64,000 nt of DNA from Candidatus Daviesbacteria bacterium. GTDB taxonomy: Bacteria > Patescibacteriota > Microgenomatia > Daviesbacterales > UBA10151. How positions within the stretch are numbered: the stretch's first letter is position 1; the number at the start of each line of letters is the position of its first letter. Position numbers and translations under genes: made by a program. This document shows positions 8,216 through 31,556 of the stretch, piece by piece. The stretch is from positions 107,188 to 171,187 of the forward strand of contig JACPKM010000001.1 in assembly GCA_016187025.1 (NCBI GenBank), written 5' to 3'. The notes below the pieces were generated by a model, which saw nothing but the letters and a program-made list of their open reading frames with translations, was not told the DNA's origin and did not search any database.

Positions 8216-8341
8216 GGATCGTAACGTTAATATAACCAGTCAATTCGTGCGTATTTTCAAGGTATTTGAGGATTTCAAGTTCATTAGCCAACTACGGGAA
8301 GAGATGGATAAAAGTACAGCCAGCGATGGCGATGGCATGAT

Positions 8342-9140
8342 TTAGGTTTCAATTTCAATATCTAAATTTGGAACTTTACCATACCCTTGCAAGGCGGCAA
8401 TGAATCTTTCACCAAAATCTACCGATTGAATTAAAACCTCAGGATTTCCAGCCTTCTCAAGCAACCATTCCCCAGTATCCGTTTCTTTGTCCGTTCCATA
8501 GTGATATGAGTAATTCGTAAAAACAATAGCATTTGAAGGTGATGGCTTACCCTTTGTGGCAAAAACGGCTGCATCTCGCATTTTCGTAATAGCACCTACC
8601 CAAGGAACATCCTCTGGGCGTGCATTAGGTGAAAGAGGTAGGTTCATGTCAATAAACACAATAAATGGTTTTCCTATCATCCGCTGTTTAAGTGCGTGTT
8701 TATATAGTTTTAACACACTGAATCGGAACTCTCGTTCTTTGTTGAACTTCCCCCCTATGTGCAATACACCCTCTCGCTCTTTACTCTTAACCTCAACAAC
8801 AATTCCCTCTTTCGTTTCTGGGTGAGTAGCTATAAATTCCGAATGTTTCATCTGCTTTTTGGTATGGATAAATGCGGCTTCCTAATGCCCACACTTTCTT
8901 GCCCTTAAAGACGATTGGTTGAACAAAATCTATAAATATGCCCGACTGTCGCAATATATACCTTCTCTCAACCTGTTCTGCTTCGATTTTACGCATCATT
9001 TCTTCCATCTCTGGTGTTGGCTTCTCTATTTTGGTAACTTTAGGCACACCATACGGGAAACCACCCATTAGGTAATGACATTTCTTATATTTCTTACCGC
9101 TATTACACGGACAGGGATCGTTTCTGCCTATCTTTGACAT
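8342..9140 (-). pseudogene. disrupted paralog of the SEC-C-motif protein at 26899..28098 (internal deletion/frameshift)
   Basis: ORF 8793..9140 matches the N-terminus (SEC-C zinc motif [13 protein letters not shown]) of the 399-aa protein. ORF 8342..8851 matches its C-terminal ~165 aa in another frame; the middle is missing. Confidence 0.7.
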
Positions 9141-9158
9141 GGTATTGTTTGACTGGGG

Positions 9159-9389
9159 TTAGCGTTTCCTATCCTGTGGTGGAAAAGGATCTCGGCCAAA
9201 ACTGTCTTTGTCCCTAATCCTTCCATCTGGACGATGGGTTACTATCTCTGATTGGTTATTGATCGCTATTTGCCTTGCTGCATCGTAAGCCTCTGACTGT
9301 GTGTCATGTACAGAAGTCACGCGACTATTGCCCGCACCGCGAACCGCCCAATCTGTGCCGTATGGTACTACATGTTGTGATTTTGCCAT
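9159..9389 (-). CDS. DUF2188 family small protein
   Basis: 76-aa translation typical of DUF2188. Confidence 0.5.
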   Translation of the reverse strand: MAKSQHVVPYGTDWAVRGAGNSRVTSVHDTQSEAYDAARQIAINNQSEIVTHRPDGRIRDKDSFGRDPFPPQDRKR

Positions 9390-9436
9390 TTTTGCTTCAC
9401 CCCCCTCATATTTTGATATATTTATATCGACTTGAC

Positions 9437-9455
9437 ATGACTATAAATTTGTCAT
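9437..9455 (+). promoter_or_regulatory. candidate operator (inverted repeat ATGAC-N9-GTCAT) overlapping the promoter of the LexA-like gene
   Basis: TTGACAtgactataaatttgtcaTAAAGT: -35 TTGACA at 9432, 17-nt spacer, weak -10; the palindrome sits inside the spacer. Confidence 0.4.
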
Positions 9456-9469
9456 AAAGTTATCATAAT

Positions 9470-10069
9470 ATGGATATTAAAGTCAAGCCCCTAACTAACA
9501 AACAAAAGGAAGCGTTAGATTTCGTAAATTCTTTCATGCAAGAAAAAGGATACGCCCCTTCTTTGCGTGAATTAGCCACATTTTTGGACACCAAAAACCT
9601 AAGTACCGCACAGTACTACATCGAAGAATTAGAAAAAAAAGGTTATCTAAAACGAGATCCACATAAAAATAGAGGTATAGCACCAATTACCCAAAAACAA
9701 ACTATTCCTCTACTGGGTTTTATAGCTACCGGGGAACCCATAGAGCCGATTGAAAACGCTGAACCCATACAAGTATCATCGAATATTAAATTGAATCCAA
9801 ACCATTCCTACTACGCTCTTAAGGTAAAAGGTGACAGCATGATGGATATGGGAATTCTGGATAATGACATCGTTCTTATTAAGCATCAAATGACAGCAGA
9901 TATCGGGGACACAGTAGTTGGAATTACGGAAAAAGGTGCTACATTAAAAGTTTTAGGTGAAAAAAATGGAAGAACAATCTTACAACCAAAAAATCCAAAT
10001 TATGAAATAATAATTCCAGAACAACTCGAAATAAGAGGTGTCTTTGTTGGATTATTAAGAAAAAATTAA
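9470..10069 (+). CDS. lexA: LexA-like repressor (N-terminal wHTH + S24 peptidase domain)
   Basis: N-terminal DNA-binding region; 'GF..TG' cleavage region; 'VKGDSMMDMGILDNDIVLIK' Ser nucleophile context and downstream Lys; ends 2 nt before the MTase start. Confidence 0.7.
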   Translation: MDIKVKPLTNKQKEALDFVNSFMQEKGYAPSLRELATFLDTKNLSTAQYYIEELEKKGYLKRDPHKNRGIAPITQKQTIPLLGFIATGEPIEPIENAEPIQVSSNIKLNPNHSYYALKVKGDSMMDMGILDNDIVLIKHQMTADIGDTVVGITEKGATLKVLGEKNGRTILQPKNPNYEIIIPEQLEIRGVFVGLLRKN

Positions 10070-10070
10070 C

Positions 10071-10853
10071 ATGAATTCACTAGACGACTATATCAATAAA
10101 ATAATTTGTGGTGATTGTATTGAAATAATGCAGAAAATGCCTGAAAAAAGCATTGATTTAGCTGTTACCTCACCACCATATAATCTTAAAAACTCTACAG
10201 GTAATGGCATGAAGGACGGAAGGGGTGGTAAATGGGCAAATGCACAACTACAAAAGGGCTACCACAACTATGATGACAATATGCCACATGATCTGTATGC
10301 GACATGGCAAAGGAAATGTTTAGAAGAAATGATGAGATTGTTAAAAGATGATGGGGCAATTTTCTATAATCACAAATGGCGTGTTCAGGATGGTTTACTT
10401 CAAGATAGACAAGATATAGTTTCAGGTTTTCCAGTCAGACAAATAATCATATGGCATCGCAACGGCGGTATTAACTTTAATAGAGGCTATTTTTTACCAA
10501 CGTACGAGGTAATTTATTTAATCGCAAAGAAGAATTTCAAGTTAGCACCAAAAGCTAATGCGTATGGCGATGTGTGGGATATTGGGCAAGATCTCAATAA
10601 TCCCCACCCCGCACCATTTCCGGTAGAACTTATTGAACGGATAATAGGTTCAACAACTGCAAATATCATCCTCGATCCTTTTATTGGTTCTGGAACCACT
10701 GCGGTAGTAGCTAAACAACTGGGAAGAAAATATATCGGCATTGACGTGTCACCTGAATACTGCAAAATGGCTGAAAATCGGATAGAAAAAGGATACTTTG
10801 CTAAAAAGAATCAAGAACGTATGCCTTTATTTTCAGATGATTCTTTGATATAA
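10071..10853 (+). CDS. beta-class DNA methyltransferase, probably N4-cytosine (N6_N4_Mtase family)
   Basis: Motif IV 'SPPY' near the N-terminus (DLAVTSPPYNL) and AdoMet motif I 'DPFIGSGTT' near the C-terminus, which is the beta-class permutation. Confidence 0.8.
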   Translation: MNSLDDYINKIICGDCIEIMQKMPEKSIDLAVTSPPYNLKNSTGNGMKDGRGGKWANAQLQKGYHNYDDNMPHDLYATWQRKCLEEMMRLLKDDGAIFYNHKWRVQDGLLQDRQDIVSGFPVRQIIIWHRNGGINFNRGYFLPTYEVIYLIAKKNFKLAPKANAYGDVWDIGQDLNNPHPAPFPVELIERIIGSTTANIILDPFIGSGTTAVVAKQLGRKYIGIDVSPEYCKMAENRIEKGYFAKKNQERMPLFSDDSLI

Positions 10854-10862
10854 GATAACATC

Positions 10863-11651
10863 ATGCAACTTTATACAAAAGATGAACTAATTAAAAGATT
10901 AAAAAAATTGGCAGAAATGGGTTGGATCCCAAATGGTAGGTTTGGGAACCATGGCGGTATAGGAAATACTTTAGAAGATTTTCTAGAAATTGAAGAAAAC
11001 AATTTACCTATTCCAAATGCTGCAGAATGGGAACTTAAATCACAACGGGCAAATACAACTTCCCTTACTACTCTTTTCCATATGGAACCATCACCAAGAG
11101 CTGTAGGATTTGTACCAAAAGTTTTATTGCCTCTTTATGGGTGGGGACATCAAGGGGCGGGAACTACCTATAACGCAGAAGAGATGAGTTTTAGGCAAAC
11201 AATTCATGGATTATCTCATAGCGACAGAGGCTTTATTGTGCAAATTGATAGGATTGCTAAAAAAATTCTGGTTTCTTTTGATGCTTCTAAAGTTAGCGAA
11301 AAACATACAAAGTGGTTAGAAGGCGTAAAAGAGAAAGTTGGTTTAGGTGAACTTAACCCACAACCATACTGGGGATTTGACGATCTTGAACATAAAGCAG
11401 GTACTAAATTATTAAATTGTTTTTATGTTCAAGCTGAAGTCAAAACCGAGAAAGGAAAAGAGTTCTATTGGTATAACAAAGCACAGATGTTGCAGAAATT
11501 TAGATTCGAAGGATTATTGGAAGCACTTGAAAAAGGCGTGATGCTAGTAGACTTCGATGCACGGACAGGACACAACCATGGTACAAAATTTAGGCTGAAA
11601 CAAAATCGCCTTCCGATGTTATACGAAAAAGTGACGACTGTCGTAGGTTAA
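10863..11651 (+). CDS. putative Type II restriction endonuclease (PD-(D/E)xK-like; possibly MvaI/BcnI-like)
   Basis: Immediately downstream of the MTase; 'TLEDFLEIEE...AEWELKSQR' could be a D...ExK catalytic motif near the N-terminus; family assignment is tentative. Confidence 0.45.
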   Translation: MQLYTKDELIKRLKKLAEMGWIPNGRFGNHGGIGNTLEDFLEIEENNLPIPNAAEWELKSQRANTTSLTTLFHMEPSPRAVGFVPKVLLPLYGWGHQGAGTTYNAEEMSFRQTIHGLSHSDRGFIVQIDRIAKKILVSFDASKVSEKHTKWLEGVKEKVGLGELNPQPYWGFDDLEHKAGTKLLNCFYVQAEVKTEKGKEFYWYNKAQMLQKFRFEGLLEALEKGVMLVDFDARTGHNHGTKFRLKQNRLPMLYEKVTTVVG

Positions 11652-11675
11652 TATCTTCACCTGTGAAATAGATCT

Positions 11676-11807
11676 TCAACTTTTACACCAAACTTTCATG
11701 AGATTTTCATCAATAATTTTAAGTAAAGATTCTTCACCTATCTTTAAACGATCATATTCTTTTTTAAGCGTTTCTATCCTTTTTTGATATTGAAGGGGAG
11801 TTGACAT
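11676..11807 (-). pseudogene. Fic N-terminal fragment (43 codons) with duplicated Fic promoter region
   Basis: Minus-strand translation MSTPLQYQKRIETLKKEYDRLKIGEESLLKIIDENLMKVWCKS* parallels the Fic N-terminus MSTSFSLQRRIEILKKEYDRLKIGKGFLL; the upstream ~80 nt also matches 8127..8215. Confidence 0.65.
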
Positions 11808-11811
11808 AGCT

Positions 11812-11895
11812 GCTGCATTATATCAAATTCATGTCATTTTGTCAATTTAACGTGAATTATAGCCTTTTGCGATATAAATTCACGGTATTTGCTCG
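11812..11895. repeat. direct repeat copy 2 (degenerate Fic promoter region)
   Basis: See 8127..8215. Confidence 0.6.
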
Positions 11896-12031
11896 GCCGA
11901 CAGGACTTATTCAGAAACCGAGAAATAGAGTTTGGGTTTAATTTACAGGACATTCAAACAATCTATTCTATCTTCAATTTATCATTACAACATTAGTTTT
12001 AGGAAAGGAGGATATCAAAAATTGATATATC

Positions 12032-12520
12032 TTATTTCACCTCACTGGCGAGAACGTAATCTTCATCTTCTGTAGGAGCTTGCCAATACTTCAAATAACT
12101 GTCAAACATCTCTCTGCTAATCTTAAAAGATTCTTTCGTAAGATTAACGTTTCTTCCAACAACCCTTTCCCGTATCGTTTCTATCGGAGTATCAAGATAA
12201 TACAATACCTCTTTAGCACCTAGTGCCTCTATTCTTTTCTTCATTTTAACTCGTTGTTCCTTTTCCCAAAAACCCTCGTCAATAATGACATCAATACCTT
12301 TCTCAACAAGTTGGAATGCAACATCTCTTGATAACTCGATGATTTTAGTATCCCATTCCGCATATCCATCGATTGTGGGATCATTTCCAATTAAACTGAT
12401 TGACCACTCATCCTTCGTGATCTTCACTGCACCAGTTTTTTCCTCTAGCTTCTTTGCAAAAGTAGTTTTACCAGCACCGATAAATCCACAAATTACATAA
12501 ACAATAGGTTGTGTTTTCAT
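12032..12520 (-). CDS. P-loop kinase / AAA_33-like ATP-binding protein
   Basis: Walker A 'CGFIGAGKTT' near the N-terminus of a 162-aa protein. Confidence 0.6.
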   Translation of the reverse strand: MKTQPIVYVICGFIGAGKTTFAKKLEEKTGAVKITKDEWSISLIGNDPTIDGYAEWDTKIIELSRDVAFQLVEKGIDVIIDEGFWEKEQRVKMKKRIEALGAKEVLYYLDTPIETIRERVVGRNVNLTKESFKISREMFDSYLKYWQAPTEDEDYVLASEVK

Positions 12521-12597
12521 TAACGTATTATACTAGGTTCTAAATCAAATTAAGAAACTACGCATAGGTGTTGAGGCTAATTGAAGCTAAAAATATA

Positions 12598-12673
12598 TGC
12601 TCCCCCAGCCTTGGATTACTATACCAGAAAATAGCTATATTTCTATCCTGCAAACATTCCAAAATCTAAGCTG
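12598..12673. repeat. cassette-junction repeat (long form), partner at 14963..15038
   Basis: ~80% identity over ~76 nt: 'tgctcccccagccttggattac(t/a)atacca...tttc.....t.ca.acattccaaaa(t/c)ctaag'. Confidence 0.65.
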
Positions 12674-12691
12674 CATAACTTTCTCCAGACT

Positions 12692-13300
12692 TTATCTTAA
12701 CTCCTTTTTCATTTCTTCAAATTCTTTCTTACCTATTTCTCCACGAGCATACCTCTCTTTGAGAATATCCAGTGTTGACCTACCTTCATCGCCTCTTTTA
12801 CTCCAACCGCCAAGGTAACGAATAAGGGCAATGACGCCTAAAATTAAGAGAATCCAGAAAGCAAGCATAGTTACCCAGCCTAAAATGCCAAAACCTCCCC
12901 AGCCGCCCATCATATTACCAAAACCTGTTCCCATCATAGGCATAAAGCCCACCCCGCAACCGCTATTTCTTTTACCCATAGCAATGTGCATCTGTTTCTC
13001 TCCCTCCTCGCCCATCATGCTTATCATCATCTGGTTCATGGCAGCATGTCTTTGAGTATCACCAATTGATTGACCCATAAAATACTCACCCAGCACCGCA
13101 TAACTATCATCAGTAAAGTCTTTGCACTCAATTTGTTTTGCTTGGAACTTTTCCCAAATTGCTTTTCCCTCAACTTCTTCACGGGCAGTATGGTCATCAG
13201 ATGGGGATGTTGCTTGTGCCCGCACTGACTCTCCACTTATTATAAAAACCAAAAGAAAGAAGGCTGCTATCAGAGTTGTGCTTAGATAACCGGCATGCAT
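12692..13300 (-). CDS. SHOCT-domain membrane/secreted protein
   Basis: Signal/TM N-terminus, Met/Gly-rich middle, C-terminal 'LDILKERYARGEIGKKEFEEMKKEL' SHOCT-like motif. Confidence 0.5.
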   Translation of the reverse strand: MHAGYLSTTLIAAFFLLVFIISGESVRAQATSPSDDHTAREEVEGKAIWEKFQAKQIECKDFTDDSYAVLGEYFMGQSIGDTQRHAAMNQMMISMMGEEGEKQMHIAMGKRNSGCGVGFMPMMGTGFGNMMGGWGGFGILGWVTMLAFWILLILGVIALIRYLGGWSKRGDEGRSTLDILKERYARGEIGKKEFEEMKKELR

Positions 13301-13310
13301 TGCAGATGAG

Positions 13311-14264
13311 TTACAAATCCTTAACTTGTAGTACCACTTTACCTTGCGGATGGCCTTCTTCTAAATGCTCAAACGCCTCTTTTGCCTCCTCTAGAGGAAA
13401 TACTTTATCAATATGTATCTTGATTTTCCCATTCATAACAAGTTCAGCTAAGCGGTTCAATGCTTGGGTACTTGTAACTGTATTTTGTCCAATGGCTGTA
13501 ACACCATACTTTTGGGCTAGTTCTGCGTTTGGAGCACCAAACATTGAAACAATAACCCCTCCCTTTTTGAGTACTTGAAAAGATTTATCTGAAGTTTCAC
13601 CCCCAACAGTATCAAAAACAGCATCAAAGTCCTTTAAAACTTGTTCGAAGATTTGCGCTTGGTAATCTATGACCTCATCTGCACCTAAAGATTTAACATA
13701 TTCTATATCTTTACTACCTACTGTTGTTGCCACATATGCACCCAAGGATTTAGCCAGTTGTATAGCAATAGTTCCTATACCACCTGCCCCACCTGTAATG
13801 AGAATTTTTTGACCGTTTTTAAGTTTTATATAATCTTCTAATGCTTGTATTGCACTTGCTCCTACTAATGGAAGTGCTGCTGCTTGCGCAAAATCTACAT
13901 TCTTAGGTTTTAAAGCAGTGTTTCCTGTATTTGCAGCCAAATTTTCTGCAAATGCGCCTGATCCCCCATTTAAAACAATTGCAGATCCATAAACTGAATC
14001 ACCTACTTTAAGATCAGTTACTCCTTCTCCAAGTTCTAGTATAACGCCAGCGAAATCTCCACCCAAAGTGGCTGGAAATTGTAATGGCATCATTTCTTTT
14101 AAGAACCCAGCCCGGATTTTGTAATCTATGGGGTTAATACTTGCTGCATAAACTTCTACAAGCAGCTGATTTTTAGCAAGGTTTGGTTTTGGAGTGTTTT
14201 CATTAATTTCTAAAACATCTATCCCACCATATGTGTTAATTTGTACTGCTTTCATACAAAACAA
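13311..14264 (-). CDS. NADPH:quinone oxidoreductase / zinc-type alcohol dehydrogenase-like (MDR family)
   Basis: Rossmann 'ILITGGAGGIGTIAIQLAK'; overall similarity to Qor/MDR proteins. Confidence 0.75.
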   Translation of the reverse strand: MFCMKAVQINTYGGIDVLEINENTPKPNLAKNQLLVEVYAASINPIDYKIRAGFLKEMMPLQFPATLGGDFAGVILELGEGVTDLKVGDSVYGSAIVLNGGSGAFAENLAANTGNTALKPKNVDFAQAAALPLVGASAIQALEDYIKLKNGQKILITGGAGGIGTIAIQLAKSLGAYVATTVGSKDIEYVKSLGADEVIDYQAQIFEQVLKDFDAVFDTVGGETSDKSFQVLKKGGVIVSMFGAPNAELAQKYGVTAIGQNTVTSTQALNRLAELVMNGKIKIHIDKVFPLEEAKEAFEHLEEGHPQGKVVLQVKDL

Positions 14265-14340
14265 TTATATCTCATTTACATAAGAAGGGTGCAATAAACT
14301 TTACCCGGATATTAAAGAGAGTCAGGTTAAGTTTTCAGTT

Positions 14341-14362
14341 ATGCTCCCCCAATTGGACACGC
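14341..14362. repeat. cassette-junction repeat (short core 'atgctcccccaattggacacgc')
   Basis: Shares the core 'TGCTCCCCCA-N-TTGG-N-AC' with 12598 and 14963; lies between the quinone-oxidoreductase gene and brnA. Confidence 0.5.
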
Positions 14363-14378
14363 TTAGAACTTTTAACCA

Positions 14379-14639
14379 TTATTCACTGGCGGATTTATGG
14401 AGAATAGAAGAAGCCAGTGTTTGGTAAGGAATACCCTCCTTTACAGCCTTAGCTTTTAATTTCTGTAAATCTCTTTCTGAAAGCCTCAGGTTAATGTTTC
14501 TGGTTTTATTCAGGGTATTCCTGGCAATTTGCATTAATTCCTTTTTGCGCTTAGCAAAATTCTTAACTGGTTTCCACTCACCTCTTTCAATCTCAGCCAG
14601 AAGTTCCTGTTCTTCTTGATCTAATTCAAAATATTTCAT
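14379..14639 (-). CDS. brnA: BrnA-family antitoxin
   Basis: 86-aa protein immediately downstream of the BrnT gene with a 1-nt overlap; C-terminal RHH/CopG-like region. Confidence 0.6.
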   Translation of the reverse strand: MKYFELDQEEQELLAEIERGEWKPVKNFAKRKKELMQIARNTLNKTRNINLRLSERDLQKLKAKAVKEGIPYQTLASSILHKSASE

Positions 14640-14923
14640 TATTTATTTTCACCTCCAAATAAATATTTTTTAGTTGCTTTCCTTGAAGGAAAGATGGTTT
14701 TTAAAAAAATTTTCTCTTCATCTTCCACATAAGGAACATAGTAAGCATAACCCTCTATCTCAACAATTAATATTCTCTGGTTGGGATAACGCTTCTTACT
14801 CGGATGATCAATCTCATCTAGCACTCTCCCTGCTTCAATAGCTATTTGCACATCCTCAAAAGAAACCTCCCTTAATTCCGTTAAAAGGGAATTTTTCTCT
14901 TCATCCCAATCAAAGTATTTCAC
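14639..14923 (-). CDS. brnT: BrnT-family toxin (DUF497)
   Basis: 'MKYFDWDEEKN...VSFEDV' is a DUF497 signature. Confidence 0.7.
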   Translation of the reverse strand: MKYFDWDEEKNSLLTELREVSFEDVQIAIEAGRVLDEIDHPSKKRYPNQRILIVEIEGYAYYVPYVEDEEKIFLKTIFPSRKATKKYLFGGENK

Positions 14924-14934
14924 TTTAGTATTTT

Positions 14935-14963
14935 ATGACAAATCATATCATTTGTCAATATGT
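14935..14963 (-). promoter_or_regulatory. sigma70-type promoter for brnTA (TTGACA-17-TAAAAT, minus strand)
   Basis: Reverse complement aTTGACAaatgatatgatttgtcaTAAAATactaaagtg upstream of the brnT ATG. Confidence 0.5.
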
Positions 14964-15038
14964 GCTCCCCCAGCCTTGGATTACAATACCACCAAATTCC
15001 TTTATTTCCATGCTTCAGACATTCCAAAACCTAAGTTA
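14963..15038. repeat. cassette-junction repeat (long form) copy 2
   Basis: See 12598..12673. Confidence 0.65.
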
Positions 15039-15151
15039 GATTGGAGAAATGAATCACTTCGTGCTTCTTGCTTCGCAATGTGACAAAGGTGGGAAGAAAT
15101 TAAAGCCAGCTCTCCAAAGGGGAGGATTTTAGACAAATTACAGGGTTATAG

Positions 15152-15484
15152 TTATTTAACTCTATGAAGGTATGCAACTCCTTTATGATCTTCGGGGATA
15201 ATTTTTATCTCTAGTTTAGCTTTTAAAGCTTTAGTGACCTTTTCCAGAGTAGTTAAGGTATATCTAGTGTAATCAGCATCTTCAATTCTGGCAATATTGG
15301 ATTGTTTGGTGCCAACCATTTCTGCCAGCTTTTTTTGAGTTAAACCAGCCTTCTCTCTTAAATCACGGATCTGAAAAGCTATATCCCAAGCCCGATCAGC
15401 CTTATCTAATTCCTCCTGGAAGGAAGGATCTTCCTTGAGGATTTTTTCAAATGTCCTATCTAAATCATCTTTTGGTCTGTTCAT
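15152..15484 (-). CDS. XRE-family HTH antitoxin (HigA-like)
   Basis: HTH 'LTQKKLAEMVGTKQSNIARIE'; overlaps the upstream toxin gene. Confidence 0.65.
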   Translation of the reverse strand: MNRPKDDLDRTFEKILKEDPSFQEELDKADRAWDIAFQIRDLREKAGLTQKKLAEMVGTKQSNIARIEDADYTRYTLTTLEKVTKALKAKLEIKIIPEDHKGVAYLHRVK

Positions 15485-15842
15485 TTTGATTTTCCTCCCT
15501 TTCTTTAACTTCTTTTAATCTTCGTCTGGCTAATTCCAAATCACCTACTGGTGTTTTCTGATCTTTTTTAGTAAAGCCATGTAATAAAATTATTATTCTC
15601 CCTTTCTCAAAAGTATAGATTATCCTCAGTATATCTGTTCCTGCTCTGACTCGCAGCTCCCAAAGTCCTGACTCTAAATGCTTTGATAATGGCTCTTTAT
15701 GGTAAGCTCTGTTCCTAATTTTTTCAATTGCTTTAGAAACCTGAGCTGCCAAAGGACCGTTCACTCTCTTAAGCTCTACCAAAAACTCTTCAACTGGCTG
15801 TTTTCCACTACTGTCTTGGTAATAAATAACTTTAAAGTCCAT
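15465..15842 (-). CDS. RelE/ParE-superfamily toxin, phage Gp49/HigB-like
   Basis: 125-aa Gp49-like sequence; gene pair with the downstream XRE antitoxin. Confidence 0.6.
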   Translation of the reverse strand: MDFKVIYYQDSSGKQPVEEFLVELKRVNGPLAAQVSKAIEKIRNRAYHKEPLSKHLESGLWELRVRAGTDILRIIYTFEKGRIIILLHGFTKKDQKTPVGDLELARRRLKEVKEREENQNEQTKR

Positions 15843-16005
15843 AAATATTATATATCATTTTTGATATGTCAATCAAGTGTCATCTTTTCCTGATCTTCTA
15901 TTTTACTCAGTTCCACTTAAATCAGCTACTTGGTAACCATAGCATCGCCATAATATCATAGAGAAGAAAAGTAAGCTGGCAGTAAAAATTGAGGCTAAAA
16001 GAAAT

Positions 16006-16056
16006 GTGCTCCACGAAGTTGGCGCACTTACGTAAAACAAACCACCGGGGGTCACC
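16006..16056. repeat. degenerate core 'gtgctccacgaagttggcgcac' followed by a 26-nt motif 'cgtaaaacaaaccaccgggggtcacc' that recurs at 18823..18849
   Basis: 23/26 identity between 16031..16056 and 18823..18849; both sit in imperfect hairpins (acttacg...cgtaagt; gcgtaa...ttacacgc). Confidence 0.5.
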
Positions 16057-16119
16057 ACATACTGCGTAAGTCCTGGAATTACTATACCTACAGATAAAGG
16101 ATGCCGGGAACTCAAGGAA

Positions 16120-17337
16120 TTAACTTAAAACTAGATTCATCCCATGCTCTAAAAGTTTGTTATGTAGTCGGTCATAAATAAACCTCTCTGGGGAATCATT
16201 TTCCAACTTCAAACTAAAGTCTGTCATAAATGAAAAAGTTTGGGGGAAAGCTAAATAGAAATCCCGATAGAATCCATTTAAGGCATTTTCTGCACTTTCT
16301 GCAGATCCATCTACAGCTTCAAAATCAATTCCTCTTAAAGATTGCATAAAAGCATACTTTGCCACTAGCTCTTGTAAAGAGATCACACCTAAACTAGTTT
16401 CAAAAGGTCTTCTTTTTTCTCGACGAGCAAAACCATCTTGCCTAGCCTCTTTGATATAAGCTGGAAGTTCTTGAAGAGTTTTAAGAAAAAGAGTATCCGG
16501 GTGAAATTCATGAGCAGAAACCGTCTTATAAAAATCTAAAGATAAACCCGCTTTTATGCAATTATAAAAGTAGCTAATTGTTCTGTCTAAGTTTGCTCGG
16601 TCTATTGACTTTAAGCTTGGGGTATTTGCATCTGGTAGTAGTCCATAGGGATTTCCGGAACCATCTTGAGTAAAATAAGCTACAAGTAGAATAGTAATAC
16701 CTGCGGGGCGAGATTGATTATCTTGAGCTAAAATTAACTGTTGCTCTCTAGGTAACGTACCTCTAAAACCAAAGTCAACAAAATAGGCCGCTTTATTCGC
16801 CAAACCATTTCTTAAGTAAAAATCCCTCAGATCCCGTCTCTCATCACTTTTTTGGTTAGGATATAGTTCTCTGGGCGCAAGATGTGCGTATAAAGCTCCC
16901 CTACTGGAAGGAGAGTAAAGCCATTTACTATCATGTCTTTTGCTATAAGCAATCAAAAATCCTAAACTATCTCTTCCTTCAAATATAAAAATTGGTTCTT
17001 TTTTTTGACCAGTTTTTTGATCAACATCTTTAATACCATCAATCCAATCTGCAACAGACGCGTAAAAAGGAGCTAGCCTCTGTCCAGCTTGATAATAAAT
17101 CCCAGCAAGGAAATTAAGCTGTAATGTCAAATCTGGGCTAACACTGTAACCTCTAGGCATAGCTTTCCTTGCCAAAAAAGGTATATAACCCACCACTCTT
17201 TGATAATCGTCACCAACTAAAGCTTCTTTCCTGTCGGAATTACCAACTGATCCAGTAGTTATAGTTGTTAAGTCTCTTCTCGCTTCAGCTAAGATCTCCT
17301 CTCTGAGTGCATTTTGACCTCTTTCCTCACTTACCAT
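16120..17337 (-). CDS. hypothetical protein (405 aa)
   Basis: Long ORF; no family recognised. Confidence 0.6.
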   Translation of the reverse strand: MVSEERGQNALREEILAEARRDLTTITTGSVGNSDRKEALVGDDYQRVVGYIPFLARKAMPRGYSVSPDLTLQLNFLAGIYYQAGQRLAPFYASVADWIDGIKDVDQKTGQKKEPIFIFEGRDSLGFLIAYSKRHDSKWLYSPSSRGALYAHLAPRELYPNQKSDERRDLRDFYLRNGLANKAAYFVDFGFRGTLPREQQLILAQDNQSRPAGITILLVAYFTQDGSGNPYGLLPDANTPSLKSIDRANLDRTISYFYNCIKAGLSLDFYKTVSAHEFHPDTLFLKTLQELPAYIKEARQDGFARREKRRPFETSLGVISLQELVAKYAFMQSLRGIDFEAVDGSAESAENALNGFYRDFYLAFPQTFSFMTDFSLKLENDSPERFIYDRLHNKLLEHGMNLVLS

Positions 17338-17423
17338 AGAGGGATGATATCATGAATGAAGCTAAGATACAAACTATGGGTCACTTAGGACAATATTTTT
17401 CTAGGGACTGAAGAGGAATAAGA

Positions 17424-17650
17424 TTATTCCCCAGCTGCTTTCTTTAGGATTTCTATGTCAATTTTTTTCATTTTCAGAAAAGCCTCAGTCACCATTTCAC
17501 TTTTTCCGGGATCAGACATAAGCGCTATTAAAACTGTTGGTACTATTTGCCAAGAGAGACTAAATTTATCCTTAAGCCATCCGCACTGCACCTCTTCTCC
17601 CCCATCTTGAGTTAATTTCTCCCAGTAATAATCTACTTCATCTTGATCTT
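17424..17650 (-). pseudogene. C-terminal fragment of a PhnB-like VOC/glyoxalase-fold protein (3-demethylubiquinone-9 3-methyltransferase-domain family)
   Basis: Minus-strand translation '...CKDQDEVDYYWEKLTQDGGEEVQCGWLKDKFSLSWQIVP...MKKIDIEILKKAAGE*' matches the conserved C-terminus of PhnB-like proteins; no start codon or N-terminal half. Confidence 0.6.
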
Positions 17651-17750
17651 TGCAACTAACTAAAAATAAAGGGAATATTAACTATATTTGGCTCCGTTTA
17701 ATGTCGGATGTTTAAACTTATTTTACATCCTCAATGTTATAATCTTAAGC

Positions 17751-18767
17751 ATGAGTAATGAGGTAGTCAGGAGCGTTTGTTATTTTACAGACAATCCCAA
17801 CCAACAAACAGTAGATAAAGTTAACGAACTTGAGGCTAAATTAGTTGAAAAAGGCTATGAAGTCCAGACTAAGAGAGTTTGTACTCCCATAGCAGACCCG
17901 ATAGAGCTTCAGGAAAGAGTTGGAGATAAGACATGGCTTCTTTGCGTTGGGACTCTTCCTTTTGAACAAGCCGTAGCTTCACTACCAAAGTTTTATCAGG
18001 CTGATGGAGTATCTTTCAATGTGGACTTAACCTCTATACCTATTGATATCCCTCATACGGCACCTTTGTTTAAGATTATTAAAAACAGGCCTGGTGTTAC
18101 CTTTAATTTTACCTATGTTTTCAACAACAAGCCCTCTTCTCCTTACTTCCCATCTGCAAATTACGCAAGAAACGGATTTTCTATTGGTTTGCAACCTACG
18201 GATTTAGCTGAAGATTGTTCTACTTTGGAAGAGTGGTTAGAAAAAATGAAGGCTAGTTGGCTAAGATTGGATGAAATGCTTGGGAGTGACCCTGATTTCT
18301 TGGGTATTGATAGCTCTATTGCTCCTATTTTCGAAGGTAAAGGAAGCCTTATAAACTTCATTAGGCGACTAGAAATGTCTTTTAGCGGTTCTGTAACTAC
18401 AAATACTTATGTGCGGATTACTCAATTTATGAAAGAACAAAATCCCAAACCAGTAGGACTATGTGGCCTCATGATGCCTTGTCTCGAAGATTTTGAATTG
18501 GCTGATGAATACGAAGGTGGTAATTTCTCTATTGAGAGAAATGTGTTTTTGTCTTTGCATTCCGGTTTAGGTATTGACACTTATCCAATAGGGATAGATG
18601 AAGACCCTAAGCGCGTTGTTGAGATATTGAGGCTAGTTCAGGCTTTATCACAGAAGTATACCAAACCCCTATCAGTTAGATTTGTCTCAGATGGTAAGGC
18701 TGAAATAGGGCAAAGAACAGACTTCCAAAATCAATATCTAAAAGACGTTATAGTAAGACCTTTATAG
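17751..18767 (+). CDS. hypothetical protein (~338 aa)
   Basis: ORF; internal Met start after the upstream remnant; no confident family. Confidence 0.55.
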   Translation: MSNEVVRSVCYFTDNPNQQTVDKVNELEAKLVEKGYEVQTKRVCTPIADPIELQERVGDKTWLLCVGTLPFEQAVASLPKFYQADGVSFNVDLTSIPIDIPHTAPLFKIIKNRPGVTFNFTYVFNNKPSSPYFPSANYARNGFSIGLQPTDLAEDCSTLEEWLEKMKASWLRLDEMLGSDPDFLGIDSSIAPIFEGKGSLINFIRRLEMSFSGSVTTNTYVRITQFMKEQNPKPVGLCGLMMPCLEDFELADEYEGGNFSIERNVFLSLHSGLGIDTYPIGIDEDPKRVVEILRLVQALSQKYTKPLSVRFVSDGKAEIGQRTDFQNQYLKDVIVRPL

Positions 18768-18822
18768 TTAATATACTTAAGATTCTTAACTTCTAAAAAC
18801 TACACTAATTGATTTTCCTTCG

Positions 18823-18849
18823 CGTAAAACAAACCACCTGAAGGTCACC
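18823..18849. repeat. second copy of the 26-nt 'cgtaaaacaaaccacc-ggtcacc' motif
   Basis: See 16006..16056. Confidence 0.5.
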
Positions 18850-19086
18850 GATTGGTTCGATTACACGCACCACAAGTCTGAGGGATGAGCCCTCAGGCTC
18901 AGATCTTCGATTCCAAGATCGTCACTCAGATTCGAAGAACTCGAAGAGGTGGGTTAGCTTGGCACCTTCTCGGCTCCCCAGACCTTGAATTATTATACCC
19001 CAAAGTTTTAGAGGCTTTCAGCAATAAAAGCTATGTTGGAGAATTGAGGCAAAGGTGGCTGGAGATTAAAAAATTACAATTCAACT

Positions 19087-19740
19087 CTAGTACCAAAATT
19101 TATGTGATGTAGAATCAAAGTGCTGATCTAAACCATCTGCCACTGCTAATAAATTTCTAGCTAAATCCCCTGATTTATCCTTGTAAATCATCGTTCTATA
19201 TAAATCTATAGATTCTAACAAATCCCTGTAAAGTACCACAATCGATACAGGTAACATAAACCTATCTTCTTCCCATTTGATAATCTCGAGATGTTGGAAC
19301 TTAACAGCCTTGTTTTCATAATAATCCCATTGCTCCCTATCTCCTTTATAAAGAAGCCACTCTATAGTTTTATTAGGATCCGTTCTTGAAACCATTTTCT
19401 TAGGACTATAGATATGAACAGTTCCATGCCTATACATATCATAGAGCAAATCACCATGTTTCTCATATAGTTTATCGATATGCGACAATACTTTTTTTAT
19501 AAAGATTTTTGCTTTCTGGGGCGTTGCAAAGTCATCTTTGTCACCATTTTTCTTTTTATTGCCACTCCAACCAGAATAAAGTAATCCGAGAAAATCAATA
19601 TAGCAAAACACCATTCGTGGAACACCAAAATAACCGCCTTCAGGCCTACCGGGTTGAATAATCGGAGAGATGTCAGTGTTTATCGACGTAACAAGATCAT
19701 TGATTATTCTGTCAATCCTTCGTGCCTCTTCATTAATCAT
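19087..19740 (-). CDS. hypothetical protein (217 aa)
   Basis: ORF, last gene of a tight minus-strand operon. Confidence 0.55.
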   Translation of the reverse strand: MINEEARRIDRIINDLVTSINTDISPIIQPGRPEGGYFGVPRMVFCYIDFLGLLYSGWSGNKKKNGDKDDFATPQKAKIFIKKVLSHIDKLYEKHGDLLYDMYRHGTVHIYSPKKMVSRTDPNKTIEWLLYKGDREQWDYYENKAVKFQHLEIIKWEEDRFMLPVSIVVLYRDLLESIDLYRTMIYKDKSGDLARNLLAVADGLDQHFDSTSHKFWY

Positions 19741-19755
19741 AAATCATAATTTGAC

Positions 19756-20154
19756 TTATTTAGGTCCTTTGAATCCCAAAGCCAAAAGTGCCTCCTTTAC
19801 TTTTCTTAATTTATCCTCTTTCACCAAAATATAATCTTTTGAGTAAGTAGAAATAATCAGGATGTTCATGCCTGCTTTAGCGATTGCTGAACTAACTGTG
19901 GCTAAAAAACCAACTGAATAAAATGGAACAGAAACATTTAATGCAATTAACTTGTAATTATCTTTGTTTCTTTCAATTAAATCCAAACTACTCAGATTTT
20001 CTTCTTTGGTTACTACTGTAATTTCATCCTTGTCCTGGCTAACCATAAAGTGCTTCTCTGTCTCCGGAACACTTTTGACCTGAGTATAAACATAAACTCC
20101 ATCCTCTGTTTCAAAACTACTTTGTTTAATTATATTTTTTAACTCATCATTCAT
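19756..20154 (-). CDS. ACT-domain-like small protein
   Basis: 132-aa sequence resembles ACT_7-type ligand-binding domain proteins (tentative). Confidence 0.4.
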   Translation of the reverse strand: MNDELKNIIKQSSFETEDGVYVYTQVKSVPETEKHFMVSQDKDEITVVTKEENLSSLDLIERNKDNYKLIALNVSVPFYSVGFLATVSSAIAKAGMNILIISTYSKDYILVKEDKLRKVKEALLALGFKGPK

Positions 20155-20158
20155 ATGA

Positions 20159-20755
20159 TTAACCTAACCAAGCTGCTAAAAGTGTTTTAATTTTTATTAA
20201 AAGGTCATGTGCACCAGAAAAGGTAGCCGCTGTTGTAATTGCTGCCCAAGAAACCTGAATAATTTGCTTGGAAGGGTTAGGCTTAACTAATTGCGATTTT
20301 ATGGTTTCTACATCACCTGTTAAATTCATCTTCTCCTCTTCGGTTAATGTCGACTTTCTAACCTCTTCTATAAGCGAGTTTAATTCATCAATAGAGTTAC
20401 CTTTAACCTGTGTGATGCTCCCTATATTATCTCCCATCACTAAAACATTATTAGAACCCTCTAACGTAATTGAAGAAAATGTCTTTCTGCTAAATTTTGA
20501 CTTTTCGAATATCTGCACCCCTTTACTGGAGATTATTATCTTCTCAAAAGATACCCCTCCACCTCTCTCTACCTTCTTGCTAACATAACCCTCGCCCTTT
20601 AGAAAATTTATGTTTCTTATAACCTCATTTCTATCAAAACCCTCTCGTCTCAACTCATTTGCTACCCTAGCCGGAGCTATCCACAACGCTTTCTTTAGAT
20701 TGTAATCATAAAGAAATTTTAAAATTTTATCTCTCACTCTGTCCTCGTTATCCAT
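20159..20755 (-). CDS. hypothetical protein with N-terminal winged-helix-like region (198 aa)
   Basis: ORF in an operon. Confidence 0.5.
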   Translation of the reverse strand: MDNEDRVRDKILKFLYDYNLKKALWIAPARVANELRREGFDRNEVIRNINFLKGEGYVSKKVERGGGVSFEKIIISSKGVQIFEKSKFSRKTFSSITLEGSNNVLVMGDNIGSITQVKGNSIDELNSLIEEVRKSTLTEEEKMNLTGDVETIKSQLVKPNPSKQIIQVSWAAITTAATFSGAHDLLIKIKTLLAAWLG

Positions 20756-20756
20756 G

Positions 20757-21068
20757 TTAAATCAAACTCTGCTCTACTCCATAAACAATAGCATTAAGGG
20801 TGCTCCTAGCCTCTTCCAATCCGCGCATGCAAGCTTCTATATCCGCTTGTCTGTTCCATTCAGGATTCATCATTCTAATAACTGCTGATCTATAACTGAT
20901 TTTCTCAAAAGTTTTATAGTGCTTTGAGTCTTCACCAATCAGGTTATTCAAAATCATTAGGGTTTCTTCACGCCACTGGCGTAATCTATTAAAATCCACC
21001 TCTTTTAAAAGCTCATCAATAAAAGCTATTTTCTCTTTGAGCAATTGCAAATTACGATCTTCATTCAT
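20757..21068 (-). CDS. hypothetical protein (103 aa)
   Basis: ORF in an operon; overlaps the upstream gene by 8 nt. Confidence 0.5.
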   Translation of the reverse strand: MNEDRNLQLLKEKIAFIDELLKEVDFNRLRQWREETLMILNNLIGEDSKHYKTFEKISYRSAVIRMMNPEWNRQADIEACMRGLEEARSTLNAIVYGVEQSLI

Positions 21069-21255
21069 ATTTATTCTTTTGATGTATATTTATAAAATTC
21101 ACAATATCTTCCCTTCTATACCTCCTATCTCCTCGCGTACTCACTACTACAGCCTTTAACTTCCCCAAACGGTCCCAACGTCTTAGGGTCTCTGGATTGA
21201 CACCCAAAATCTCAGCTGCCTCGCGTATTCTTAACAACTTAATCATTTTAACCAT
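21061..21255 (-). CDS. excisionase/MerR-like HTH DNA-binding protein
   Basis: 'IREAAEILGVNPETLRRWDRLGKLKAVVVSTRGDRRYRREDI' is an HTH_17/Xis-like motif; start taken at internal Met (MVKMIK). Confidence 0.55.
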   Translation of the reverse strand: MVKMIKLLRIREAAEILGVNPETLRRWDRLGKLKAVVVSTRGDRRYRREDIVNFINIHQKNKYE

Positions 21256-21361
21256 AACTTCTACTAAATTATACACCTGCTCAGAATAAACTATAATAAG
21301 GTACAGGTAGACATAGAAGCAAGTTTTTCTTTTATTTAATAAGGAGGTTAGCTCAAGAGAT

Positions 21362-21883
21362 ATGACAAATGCAACAAAAAGCAACAAATTGCAACAAAAT
21401 TTCGACTCCCTGGAGCCTAAACACCAACAAGCTATTGATTTACGATTAGAAGGTCTTGCATATAAAGTAATTGCTAAATCTCTTAATTTGACTGAGCAAC
21501 ATGTAAGGCGTTGGTTTATGAAAGGTGGAACTTGCCATTACGCTTATCAACTTAAACAAAAACAAAGGATGAAAGATTGGCAAGAGGATTTTAAAAAAAT
21601 TGATGATAAATTAAAAGAAATAGCCACCGAAGCTGTTTTGGCTATTAAACAAAATGTACGCAAGGGAAGTTTGTGGGCTGCGTTTGGGGTATTAGATAGG
21701 GTAGGTTTTCAACCCATCCAAAAACTCCAGCCAATGACAGAACCAAAAGTACAGATTATCAATTATTCTTATCCCCAAAATGGGGAGTCTAAAACGATTG
21801 ATGGTGAAACAGAAACAAAAGAAGATACAGCATTACAACCTTGGCATCCCGAGGAAGAAATACTAACTACCAATAACCCCTAA
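21362..21883 (+). CDS. HTH-containing protein (terminase-small-subunit-like / sigma region-4-like)
   Basis: 'LRLEGLAYKVIAKSLNLTEQHVRRW' HTH; acidic C-terminus. Confidence 0.35.
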   Translation: MTNATKSNKLQQNFDSLEPKHQQAIDLRLEGLAYKVIAKSLNLTEQHVRRWFMKGGTCHYAYQLKQKQRMKDWQEDFKKIDDKLKEIATEAVLAIKQNVRKGSLWAAFGVLDRVGFQPIQKLQPMTEPKVQIINYSYPQNGESKTIDGETETKEDTALQPWHPEEEILTTNNP

Positions 21884-21887
21884 TGTA

Positions 21888-22100
21888 CTAAAAGGGGAAC
21901 AACTCCTGAACTTTAACGTTTAACACACGGGCTATTTTATAAATAGTCCGAAGAGAAGGCTTCCTATGGCCTGTTTCTATAAATTGGACATACTTCGTGC
22001 TTAAATCTAATCTCTCGGCCATTTGCTCCTGGGTCATCCCTGCTCCCTTTCTAAGTTTATGTATCTTCTTCCCTAACTTTATATCTTGCTCTGTTGCCAT
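21888..22100 (-). CDS. XRE-family (Cro/CI-like) transcriptional regulator
   Basis: 'MTQEQMAERLDLSTKYVQFIETGHRKPSLRTIYKIARVLNV'. Confidence 0.7.
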   Translation of the reverse strand: MATEQDIKLGKKIHKLRKGAGMTQEQMAERLDLSTKYVQFIETGHRKPSLRTIYKIARVLNVKVQELFPF

Positions 22101-22211
22101 ACCTTTTAAGGGTATAGATAAAGCAAATCCAGTTAAACCAACTGTGTGTCACCTTTTAAAGCTATATATAGGCTTGTTTTTACCCCCACTAACTGTTACC
22201 ATTACCTCAAA

Positions 22212-23180
22212 ATGGGCACAACATTTGCACTTTTATTTCTATTCTCCATTATTGGTTTAATCATAGGATTAATAAAACCTGCAGCTATTGCTAGGCTCAC
22301 TAAAATAACTCTACCCAGAAAAAAGCTTGCTTTGTTATTTGGAGGCCTTTCTTTGTTGTTTTTTATTTTAATTGGTGTTACCGCCGATCCCTCTACAAGG
22401 GTGCAATCAAACCAAACTAACACAGCAGCAGCCACGATTGACCAAACAACGCAAGCTACCAGTTCAGGCAACCTCCAAAATTCTCCATCCCCAACTTTGA
22501 CTCAAACACCTTCTGATAAACCTACTGACCCGGTAAAAACTGCTAAAGTAACCAGAGTTATTGATGGCGATACTATTGAGATAGAAGGTGGCCAGAAAGT
22601 CCGTTATATTGGTATTGATACCCCTGAAACAGTTGACCCCAGGACAACAGTCCAATGCTTTGGCAAAGAAGCCTCGGATAAAAATAAAGAGCTTGTGGGA
22701 GGTAAGGAAGTTAGGTTGGAGAAGGATGTTTCAGAAACTGATAAATACGGGAGGTTATTAAAGTATGTTTATGTAGGAGATACTTTTGTAAATGATTATT
22801 TGGTAAGGCAAGGCTATGCCCGTTCTTCAAGCTACCCTCCTGATATAAAGTATCAAGATCAATTCAGACAGGCAGAACAGGAAGCAAGAGGAACTCAAAA
22901 AGGCTTATGGGGATCAGCTTGCCAGTCATCACCTACTCCACAAGCTCCACAAACCCAATCCAGCCAAACAACAGGCACTACAGGCAGTTATACCGCCCCA
23001 CAACCTCAATCCGGAAGTTGTTTGATTAAGGGTAATATTAGTAGTTCAGGAGAGAAGATTTACCATATGCCTGGACAAAATTTTTACAATAAAACTGTTA
23101 TAGATACAAGCAAAGGTGAGCGTTGGTTCTGCTCAGAAGCTGAAGCCCAAACTGCTGGTTGGAGAAAAGCAAAAGTATAA
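22212..23180 (+). CDS. thermonuclease (SNase-like) with N-terminal TM anchor, Thr/Gln/Pro-rich linker and C-terminal Cys-containing domain
   Basis: 'VIDGDTIEI...VRYIGIDTPE...YGRLL' staphylococcal-nuclease motifs; C-terminal 'CLIKGNIS..GEKIYHMPGQ..FCSEAEAQTAGWR'. Confidence 0.75.
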   Translation: MGTTFALLFLFSIIGLIIGLIKPAAIARLTKITLPRKKLALLFGGLSLLFFILIGVTADPSTRVQSNQTNTAAATIDQTTQATSSGNLQNSPSPTLTQTPSDKPTDPVKTAKVTRVIDGDTIEIEGGQKVRYIGIDTPETVDPRTTVQCFGKEASDKNKELVGGKEVRLEKDVSETDKYGRLLKYVYVGDTFVNDYLVRQGYARSSSYPPDIKYQDQFRQAEQEARGTQKGLWGSACQSSPTPQAPQTQSSQTTGTTGSYTAPQPQSGSCLIKGNISSSGEKIYHMPGQNFYNKTVIDTSKGERWFCSEAEAQTAGWRKAKV

Positions 23181-23258
23181 ATACACCCTCTTAATTCGCA
23201 GATTATCTTACTCAACCTATTTTTGTTAAAATCAAGATAAATAAAGATAAGCATAAAA

Positions 23259-31554: not shown

Positions 31555-31556
31555 GT

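Follow-up and report, generated by a model that had tools for sequence, protein, structure and literature searches.

Junction repeats in a Candidatus Daviesbacteria gene array as probable scars of large serine recombinase elements inserted serially at tRNA-Asn

The stretch of DNA analysed here (the window: 64,000 nucleotides of a Candidatus Daviesbacteria genome, GenBank assembly GCA_016187025.1, contig JACPKM010000001.1, positions 107,188 to 171,187) carries, between approximately 8.2 and 42.3 kb, an array of gene units partitioned by eight junctions (c0, c0' and c1 to c6; Table 1) and closed by a tRNA-Asn(GTT) gene, on the far side of which lie the conserved core genes dnaG and rpoD. The leftmost units (8310..18972; 0.6-3.7 kb each) hold toxin-antitoxin (TA), restriction-modification (R-M), kinase and oxidoreductase genes, and lack a recombinase. 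They are followed by two longer islands, B and A, which terminate in genes for large serine recombinases (LSRs), rec1 and rec2, respectively; a recombinase hidden Markov model (HMM) run across the array matched these two genes only. Short direct repeats mark the junctions, and we propose that they are very probably the left-end junction scars of elements which LSRs inserted serially at the 3' end of tRNA-Asn.

An original prediction for this stretch had placed a short direct repeat at each cassette junction, and exact k-mer counts and self-comparison establish that the repeats are real. The 21-mer GCTCCCCCAGCCTTGGATTAC has exactly two exact matches, at 12599 and 14964, where none is expected by chance, and the 10-mer TGCTCCCCCA occurs exactly at 12598, 14342 and 14963. 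As predicted, every copy lies on the plus strand and between adjacent cassettes, and the Pfam identities of the flanking units agree with the earlier calls. An extended pair, given as approximately 76 nt at 80% identity, was recovered as the c1/c3 pair (repeat D5, 12592-12670 versus 14957-15035) with its figures revised to 79 nt at 85%. The degenerate copy reported at 16006 is also real but split, with GCTCC at 16008 and CCTGGAATTACTATACC at 16073, about 60 nt apart, and gives a weak match to the repeat profile (16070-16094, E 0.25). Further copies, at 8205, 11893, 18973 and 26762, and at the tRNA-Asn 3' end (42337), had been overlooked. The copy at 18973 emerged from low-stringency self-comparison and itself matches 26742-26786, which is the 3' end of the 503-aa rec1 gene. 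When the whole window was searched with the repeat profile, matches were confined to the array.

The repeat consists of a 7-nt core, GCTCCCC, followed by approximately 100 nt which formerly coded for the last 40-50 residues of an LSR (hereafter, the tail). The plus-strand sequence is TGGCTCCCCCGGGAGGATTCGAACC at the 3' end of the tRNA, CAGCTCCCCAGCTCTGAAGTTATTATAG at the end of rec1 and TGCTCCCCCAGCCTTGGATTACTATACC for the motif first noticed; their common part is GCTCCCC. Only GCTCC(C/G)(C/G) is common to the tRNA end and the left-end copies, and so brief a shared stretch is in keeping with serine integrases, whose cores are short. A duplicated tRNA 3' end was tried as an identity for the repeat and ruled out, as only about 7 nt match the tRNA and the remainder is recombinase coding sequence; no tRNA-like Rfam match was found in 12.4-19.2 kb. 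The tRNA-Asn gene was overlooked by default ARAGORN because of its intron (Rfam Intron_gpI, 42385-42599, 69 bits), which sits in the anticodon loop, with the recombinase target within the 3' exon. The 3' end of this gene reads as the integration target (the right arm of attB) and holds the prototype core. Intron-bearing tRNA-Asn genes also occur in eight related loci from the Candidate Phyla Radiation (CPR; L024-L026, L028, L029, L044, L049 and L053).

Both rec1 and rec2 encode Resolvase, Recombinase and Zn_ribbon_recom domains (Pfam), the catalytic serine motif R-V-S is invariant in a 26-sequence alignment, and rec2 is 99% identical to a Candidatus Daviesbacteria protein at NCBI. Both genes, the intact LSR genes of the window, terminate exactly on a core, the last 12 codons of rec2 running into the tRNA 3' end (...WLPREDSNLQP, stop). 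Joined at the core to the tail at 26762, rec2 becomes an uninterrupted open reading frame (ORF) of 550 aa (...NWLPSSEVIIEGVSSILKTFEDVIEMGIIKARWEEIKRVQK...), and rec1 joined to the tail at 18973 becomes one of 541 aa (...SSPDLELLYPKVLEAFSNKSYVGELRQRWLEIKKLQ...); the chance rate of an in-frame join is 1 in 3 per join. Since both ORFs are restored by joining the ends of an element, the attachment site of the element (attP) is placed inside the recombinase gene, and several of the attP sites reconstructed on this basis carry TTATAATAA to the left of the core and TTATTATA to its right. Were integration to proceed by crossover in GCTCCCC, sequence to the right of a core would belong to the element on its right. 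The peptides encoded after the rec1 stop and after the 18973 core are related (LKTFEDVIEMGIIKARWEEIKRVQ and VLEAFSNKSYVGELRQRWLEIKKLQ).

Most homologues of the reconstituted protein cease to match at the core, with 91% of the query covered, and several read into the tRNA T-loop, where a "DSN" peptide derives from GATTCGAAC. In other homologues the tail is contiguous. One of these, P0081, reads ...LLPQPW...IGELRQRWNEIKKLQ, matching the c1/c3 and c5 tails, and its end, ...LLPQPWTNITIDFEAIICAFQDVRYIGELRQRWNEIKKLQ, links the LPQPW start found at c1 and c3 to the GELRQRW..IKKLQ end found at c5. A tail HMM built from foreign proteins only matched the window at 8208-8309 (E 2e-15), 26793-26885 (E 3.7e-9) and 19005-19082 (E 5.5e-7), while phmmer with the P0081 tail matched c5 at E 6.8e-8. 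The c1 and c3 tails are assigned because their DNA is 85-93% identical to intact tails from groundwater metagenomes: against the intact tail of L053, c1 is 93% identical over 83 nt (blastn) and c3 85% identical over 89 nt. Pairwise comparison of four intact tails gave pN/pS values of 0.15-0.45 at pS 0.3-0.6, and the tails have thus diverged under coding constraint (purifying selection). The first 27 nt, which comprise the core and the adjoining right arm of the attachment site (P' arm), are nearly invariant across seven copies and the remaining tail differs at many synonymous sites, as may be expected if this segment is also a binding site for protein.

The association with tRNA-Asn extends to relatives. 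Scanning species-representative genomes with the recombinase-family alignment yielded 42 related loci, in which all neighbours examined were of CPR type. In 27 of the 42, the recombinase gene and a tRNA-Asn(GTT) gene are convergent and overlap at their 3' ends; in two more the overlap is with intron-bearing genes with the same 3' end which ARAGORN names tRNA-Thr. In five further loci tRNA-Asn is located farther on, 0.7-10 kb past the recombinase gene or what remains of it, in the manner of a tandem array, and the same holds for the closest relative, which is 78% identical. Where both ends are visible (eight loci), tails are found 6-10 kb upstream of the recombinase, and joining gene to tail at GCTCC restores the frame in seven, each recovering the motif GE(L/M)RQRW.EIK. 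Many related loci retain only 3' recombinase remnants, graded in length, and arrays resembling that of the window occur in L023, L050, L051 and L053. The tail is complete (LPQPWITIPENSFISILQTFQNLSYIGEMRQRWEEIKKLQ) in each of four metagenome contigs with the exact 21-mer; these resemble the window and each other from precisely the G of GCTCC onward, and their left flanks are unrelated. Several records among these loci (L009, L014, L016, L020, L026, L029 and others) are metagenome-assembled genomes titled 'uncultured Gammaproteobacteria', and are probably mislabelled.

We interpret these observations through a model in which members of an LSR family insert elements successively into the 3' end of tRNA-Asn(GTT). 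The attP would lie within the recombinase gene, some 40-50 codons ahead of its stop, and crossover within GCTCCCC would regenerate the tRNA. The main part of the recombinase gene would then run into the tRNA at the tRNA-proximal end of the element, and the last 40-50 codons of the gene would be stranded at the far end; a left-end junction would consist of core, P' arm and recombinase tail. Each new arrival would displace older elements from the tRNA. Six or seven older units would have lost the recombinase together with other plus-strand genes and kept only minus-strand cargo with its own promoters, such as TA pairs and an R-M system. Where the plus-strand module (regulation, replication and recombinase) was deleted, addictive TA pairs would be expected to persist. 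What the sequences show is the anatomy, the in-frame joins, the link to tRNA-Asn in relatives and the coding selection on the tails; how recombination proceeds, in which order the elements arrived, and that recombinases were lost through decay are inferred.

Several observations weigh against this interpretation. One of the eight gene-tail joins in related loci, that of L030, is out of frame, and at the protein level none of the c1, c2 and c3 tails reaches significance singly (E 0.7-0.8 for c1 and c3). A crude count of dyad symmetry in the reconstructed attP sites did not exceed that of shuffled sequence. Some of the apparently unsplit proteins may be fusions of a recombinase with the tail of the next element and not episomal forms; L004, where another tail lies 9 kb upstream, bears on this caveat. 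An occupied, attR-like site is not a target for integration by canonical LSRs, a limit which the model does not reconcile with the formation of tandem arrays. No excised circle, empty site or array polymorphism was seen; the seven Logan contigs which carry the kinase or Gp49 protein are all 100% identical to the window and therefore carry no information on array polymorphism. Recombinases in the viral collection IMG/VR were only 22-32% identical, and neither the recombinase family nor the junction and attP sequences were found there. That collection contained no circular junction, for which the metagenome and genome collections were not searched.

Same-strand repeats between small units, each with one or two genes and often a TA pair, had suggested an integron-like array without a visible integrase, in which attC-type hairpins would be recombined by an integron integrase located outside the window. 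The junctions do appear to be site-specific recombination junctions bounding gene units, as was proposed, but the system is not an integron. Two LSR genes lie 6 and 22 kb to the right, each ending on a copy of the repeat; serine recombinases within the window thus end on the same core, and the repeat shares homology with the 3' coding ends of their genes. The anticipated attC-like hairpins did not materialise: five copies folded as DNA on both strands gave z-scores of -0.72 to +1.52, neither strand folding better than shuffled sequence, and no hairpin is conserved. The R''/R' core sites are absent from the repeats, and no Phage_integrase domain indicative of a tyrosine (IntI-type) recombinase was found in the approximately 58 window ORFs scanned with Pfam, which are not every ORF of the 64 kb. 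Moreover, the cassettes have their own promoters, with near-consensus examples upstream of the BrnT-like gene (TTGACA-17-TAAAAT, 11/12) and the Gp49 gene (TTGACA-16-TAATAT), and we find an integron barely credible. A dispersed regulatory or selfish repeat in intergenic DNA, whether promoter, terminator, repetitive extragenic palindrome (REP) or miniature inverted-repeat transposable element (MITE), is very improbable, even though the P' arm reads TGGTATAGT or GGTATAAT on the minus strand, resembling an extended -10 box, and promoter-like sites were called inside c1 and c5. Such sites numbered 22 against 18.3 +/- 4.4 expected from shuffles, and a promoter or terminator element was rejected for this lack of enrichment; no copy coincides with a terminator-like site, the other 50 kb of the window are without the repeat, terminal inverted repeats are lacking, and the substitution pattern is codon-level. 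The REP- or MITE-mediated shuffling once suggested likewise gives way to a repeat composed of a pseudogenised recombinase C-terminus and a 7-nt core derived from the tRNA. The -10-like boxes themselves (12618-12645 and 18992-19021, minus strand) point across the core into the neighbouring unit, and could drive read-through transcription.

A closer question is whether the recombinase-less units are debris or cassettes. Most likely, they are decaying remnants of older arrivals, because the region from 8 to 19 kb holds no match to the recombinase HMM, its flanks keep enzyme-end codons, and its tails are damaged. The left flanks of c1, c2 and c4 retain 25-45 nt of recombinase 3' end, coding for the last 8-15 residues of the enzyme (VEAN.., QVKFSVM.. 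and KSKLAVKIEAK..; compare P0081, QKLIEANKVTLSSDLLPQPW), and the tail of c1 is truncated, that of c2 shortened, that of c3 burdened with a stop and a frameshift, and that of c4 interrupted. We nevertheless entertain, as a doubtful but serious alternative, that these units are working cassettes consisting of a short P arm, core and P' arm, excised and re-inserted at tRNA-Asn in trans by resident LSRs. They would then resemble cis-mobilizable elements (CIME), pseudo-SCC elements (SCC, staphylococcal cassette chromosome) or, functionally, integron cassettes. In every recombinase-less unit seen (c0, c0', c1, c2, c4, L053 and L054) the recombinase stump measures at most 50 nt, approximately an LSR half-site, and a stump of several hundred nucleotides was never seen in such units, including that of L053, which lies directly at the tRNA. 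Small units also lie between intact tails elsewhere (two tails 1.7 kb apart in L051; a tail, two genes and the tRNA in L053), the core and P' arm are nearly invariant, unlike the synonymous sites of the remaining tail, and the left flank of c4 resembles that of L054, a metagenome contig from another sample, by eye, a likeness not detected by blastn. Against this stand the visible decay of the window copies (stop codon, frameshift, truncation and a 60-nt insert), the mere 8 nt or so of P arm left at c3, the absence of circular or rearranged forms among those sought, and the longer recombinase remnants of other genomes, which form a graded decay series. Relatives of the Gp49/HTH (helix-turn-helix) pair in two other genomes have no adjoining cores or tails; at 74-76% identity and in unrelated chromosomal contexts, the two neither support nor exclude mobility. 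More tentative still, and on balance unlikely, is the proposition that the recombinase-less units of one or two genes constitute a genuine CPR cassette system, in which resident LSRs capture, stack and reshuffle minimal att-bounded modules with TA, defence and metabolic genes at tRNA-Asn. If true, this would be a functional analogue of the integron, built on another recombinase class and a tRNA target, and the C-terminal exchange which the recombinase undergoes upon integration would switch between integrated and free states.

The cargo of the array is given in Table 1. The Fic 5' duplication described in the original prediction is likewise real (repeat D7, 58 nt at 79% identity); its copies align over approximately 150 nt (8060-8345 versus the c0' region) and diverge exactly at the junction core, and what is duplicated is the right end of a unit carrying Fic. 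At c0' the right arm (11897-11925, GCTCGGCCGACAGGACTTATTCAG) resembles the decayed 3' half of a tRNA-Asn of another lineage (compare L011, GCTCCGGCGACAGGATTCGAACC), and not a recombinase tail. The 26-nt motif noted at 16031 does recur at 18823 (24/27, one gap, blastn E approximately 0.02), but without the hairpin fold ascribed to it. It belongs to the insert of about 60 nt at c4 (16013-16072), which has 7-nt inverted ends (ACTTACG/CGTAAGT) and of which 27 nt recur at 18823-18849, 150 nt to the left of c5. This insert matches nothing in Rfam, does not fold stably and is absent from 54 other loci, and an Rfam scan for a small RNA between 18768 and 18972 was without a match. A SEC-C protein is the first cargo gene after the tail in two elements (8342-9140 versus 26899-28098, approximately 70% DNA identity), and the gene of the older element is split between two ORFs. 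At 9470-11651 a LexA-like protein (LexA_DNA_bind and Peptidase_S24) is encoded immediately upstream of an N4/N6 methyltransferase and an MvaI/BcnI-type endonuclease, in the same orientation, and is a possible regulator, SOS-type or controller-like, for the R-M unit. Island A carries genes of replication and regulation (Phage_rep_O, the DnaC-like loader, and the M78 peptidase and HTH pair), but Pfam scans revealed no virion genes in it. Among related loci, the cargo of L023 (3977-5395) and L050 (8378-9924 and 4854-5132) includes a protein with SMODS and AGS_C domains, as in cyclic-oligonucleotide-based antiphage signalling systems (CBASS-like), an AbiEii/AbiEi pair and a fragment from the AAA_33 kinase family to which the kinase of the window belongs. 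The tRNA-Asn hotspot thus gathers defence-type genes across genera.

Table 1. Features of the array, with positions in the window and, for gene units, the bounding junctions (core position in brackets).
Feature	Position	Strand	Description
Fic gene	7.2-8.1 kb		left of junction c0 (8205)
Junction c0	8196..8309	+	core variant and complete tail of second subfamily (LLEDRNVNITSQFVRIFKVFEDFKFISQLREEMDK); aligns to P0032 gene 3' end
Truncated Fic, R-M, LexA-like, DUF2188 and SEC-C genes	8.3-11.8 kb		c0 (8205) to c0' (11893); Pfam
Junction c0'	11745..11925	+	duplicated Fic 5' end with promoter, short recombinase remnant, core, arm GCTCGGCCGACAGGACTTATTCAG
Kinase (AAA_33)	12.0-12.5 kb		c0' (11893) to c1 (12598); Pfam
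Junction c1	12560..12700	+	about 40 nt of recombinase 3' end (..VEAN..), core, 3'-truncated tail (LPQPWITIPENSYISILQTFQNLS...)
SHOCT and zinc-type oxidoreductase	12.7-14.3 kb		c1 (12598) to c2 (14341); Pfam
Junction c2	14310..14427	+	about 27 nt of recombinase 3' end (TTAAGTTTTCAGTTATG, compare P0081 gene), core, shortened tail (LPQLDTLRTFNHYSLADLWRIEEASVW, stop)
BrnT/BrnA-like pair	14.4-14.9 kb		c2 (14341) to c3 (14963); Pfam
Junction c3	14955..15107	+	core, decayed tail (LPQPWITIPPNSFISMLQTFQNLS, stop, frameshift, ...RWEEIK)
Gp49/HTH pair (HigBA-like)	15.2-15.8 kb		c3 (14963) to c4 (16006); Pfam
Junction c4	15955..16092	+	recombinase 3' remnant (...KSKLAVKIEAKRNVL), core GCTCC, 60-nt insert, P' arm CCTGGAATTACTATACC
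405-aa unknown and DUF711	16.1-18.8 kb		c4 (16006) to c5 (18973); Pfam
Junction c5	18973..19103	+	core and island B tail
Island B	19.0-26.8 kb		c5 (18973) to c6 (26762); terminates in rec1
Island B cargo	19104..25275		ACT-domain, MerR/HTH_17-type small protein, HTH, SNase-domain, DUF5659, unknowns; Pfam
rec1	25276..26787	+	LSR, 503 aa as integrated; ends on core c6, out of frame with island A tail
Junction c6	26762..26900	+	core GCTCCCC and island A tail
Island A	26.8-42.3 kb		c6 (26762) to tRNA-Asn core (42337); terminates in rec2
Island A cargo	26901..40833		SEC-C, HerA-like ATPase, Dam-like methyltransferase, M78 peptidase and HTH pair, Phage_rep_O, DnaC/IstB-like loader; Pfam
rec2	40834..42372	+	LSR, 512 aa as integrated; ends inside tRNA-Asn gene of opposite strand
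tRNA-Asn(GTT)	42337..42623	-	ARAGORN with introns allowed; 212-nt group I intron
Reconstructed attP, island A			GGACCAACTGGCTCCCCAGCTCTGAAGTTATTATAG
Reconstructed attP, island B			ACAGCTTTCAGCTCCCCAGACCTTGAATTATTATACC
Predicted single-cassette circle junction			c2 left flank and c1 right arm, TTTTCAGTTATGCTCCCCCAGCCTTGGATTACTATACC

Similar modes of island growth are known from several systems. In the tycheposons of Prochlorococcus, the recombinase is of the tyrosine type in 910 of 937 elements, with duplication of a portion of the tRNA, and within their islands older elements are displaced outward by new arrivals, so that partial att/tRNA repeats and integrase fragments stay behind (Hackl et al., bioRxiv 10.1101/2020.12.28.424599). 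The present array resembles these in its streamlined genome, site-specific integration at a tRNA, outward displacement, degraded integrases and defence or adaptive cargo, but differs in employing an LSR, in having only about 7 nt in common with the tRNA, and in a repeat which stems from the detached end of the recombinase gene. Among SCC and pseudo-SCC elements, which have Firmicute hosts, the large-type serine recombinases CcrAB or CcrC insert at the 3' end of rlmH without inactivating it, and some recombinase-less units are movable in trans. The target at the 3' end of a conserved gene, the tandem arrays, the short direct repeats and the recombinase-less units are all shared with our locus; the SCC target is, however, protein-coding, and the ccr genes lie inside the element and are not split by attP. 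Accretion of streptococcal CIME and integrative and conjugative elements (ICE) at tRNA or fda sites involves tyrosine integrases and conjugative elements, and offers a parallel in att-flanked units without a recombination module, in tandem with an intact element able to mobilise them in cis or in trans. The SSV1-type integrases of archaea and the intP of myxophage Mx8 carry attP inside the integrase gene, which is full-length only in the circular form. There, as here, integration at a tRNA partitions or re-tails the integrase ORF, but these are tyrosine recombinases and SSV1 splits its gene near the 5' end; the relationship is hence one of analogy, not membership. Integrons share the small, same-orientation, TA-rich cassettes between recombination sites, and differ in recombinase class, in folded attC as opposed to double-stranded att sites, in the promoters borne here by the cassettes, and in the tRNA target.

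Taken with these systems, multiple units at one target, att copies in the same orientation and the lack of a recombinase in some units place the array with tandem accretion, and the three domains with the serine motif, a short core and two direct hybrid junctions place its intact elements with those of serine integrases. Serine integrases also catalyse attP x attB recombination, and excision with a directionality factor, activities which are putative for rec1 and rec2; mobilisation of the remnant units in trans is possible. The array is a known kind of island build-up, here with an unusual recombinase, and is distinguished by an LSR dedicated to a tRNA 3' end, by an attP within its own ORF with exchange of the C-terminus, and by its CPR host. 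Full-text literature searches gave no account of this recombinase family, nor of LSR elements at tRNA-Asn in CPR bacteria; large island databases may nevertheless already contain such islands.

Mobile elements of the CPR, or Patescibacteria, are poorly known. Our results point to tRNA-Asn as a conserved hotspot for defence, TA and accessory genes in Microgenomates-type genomes and identify the enzyme family responsible. To our knowledge, characterised LSRs mostly target protein-coding genes, and a clade dedicated to a tRNA 3' end, with attP in its own ORF, represents an unusual arrangement, for which two protein isoforms are predicted: full-length when the element is free, and re-tailed when it is integrated. 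The arrangement also furnishes a rule for annotation, as a "tail" ORF fragment starting at GCTCC marks the left end of an island and may thereby provide exact island boundaries in fragmented CPR genomes, where methods reliant on tRNA repeats fail, the duplication being limited to about 7 nt. A genetic tool could, in addition, be developed from the recombinase and its tRNA target for organisms which have almost none at present.

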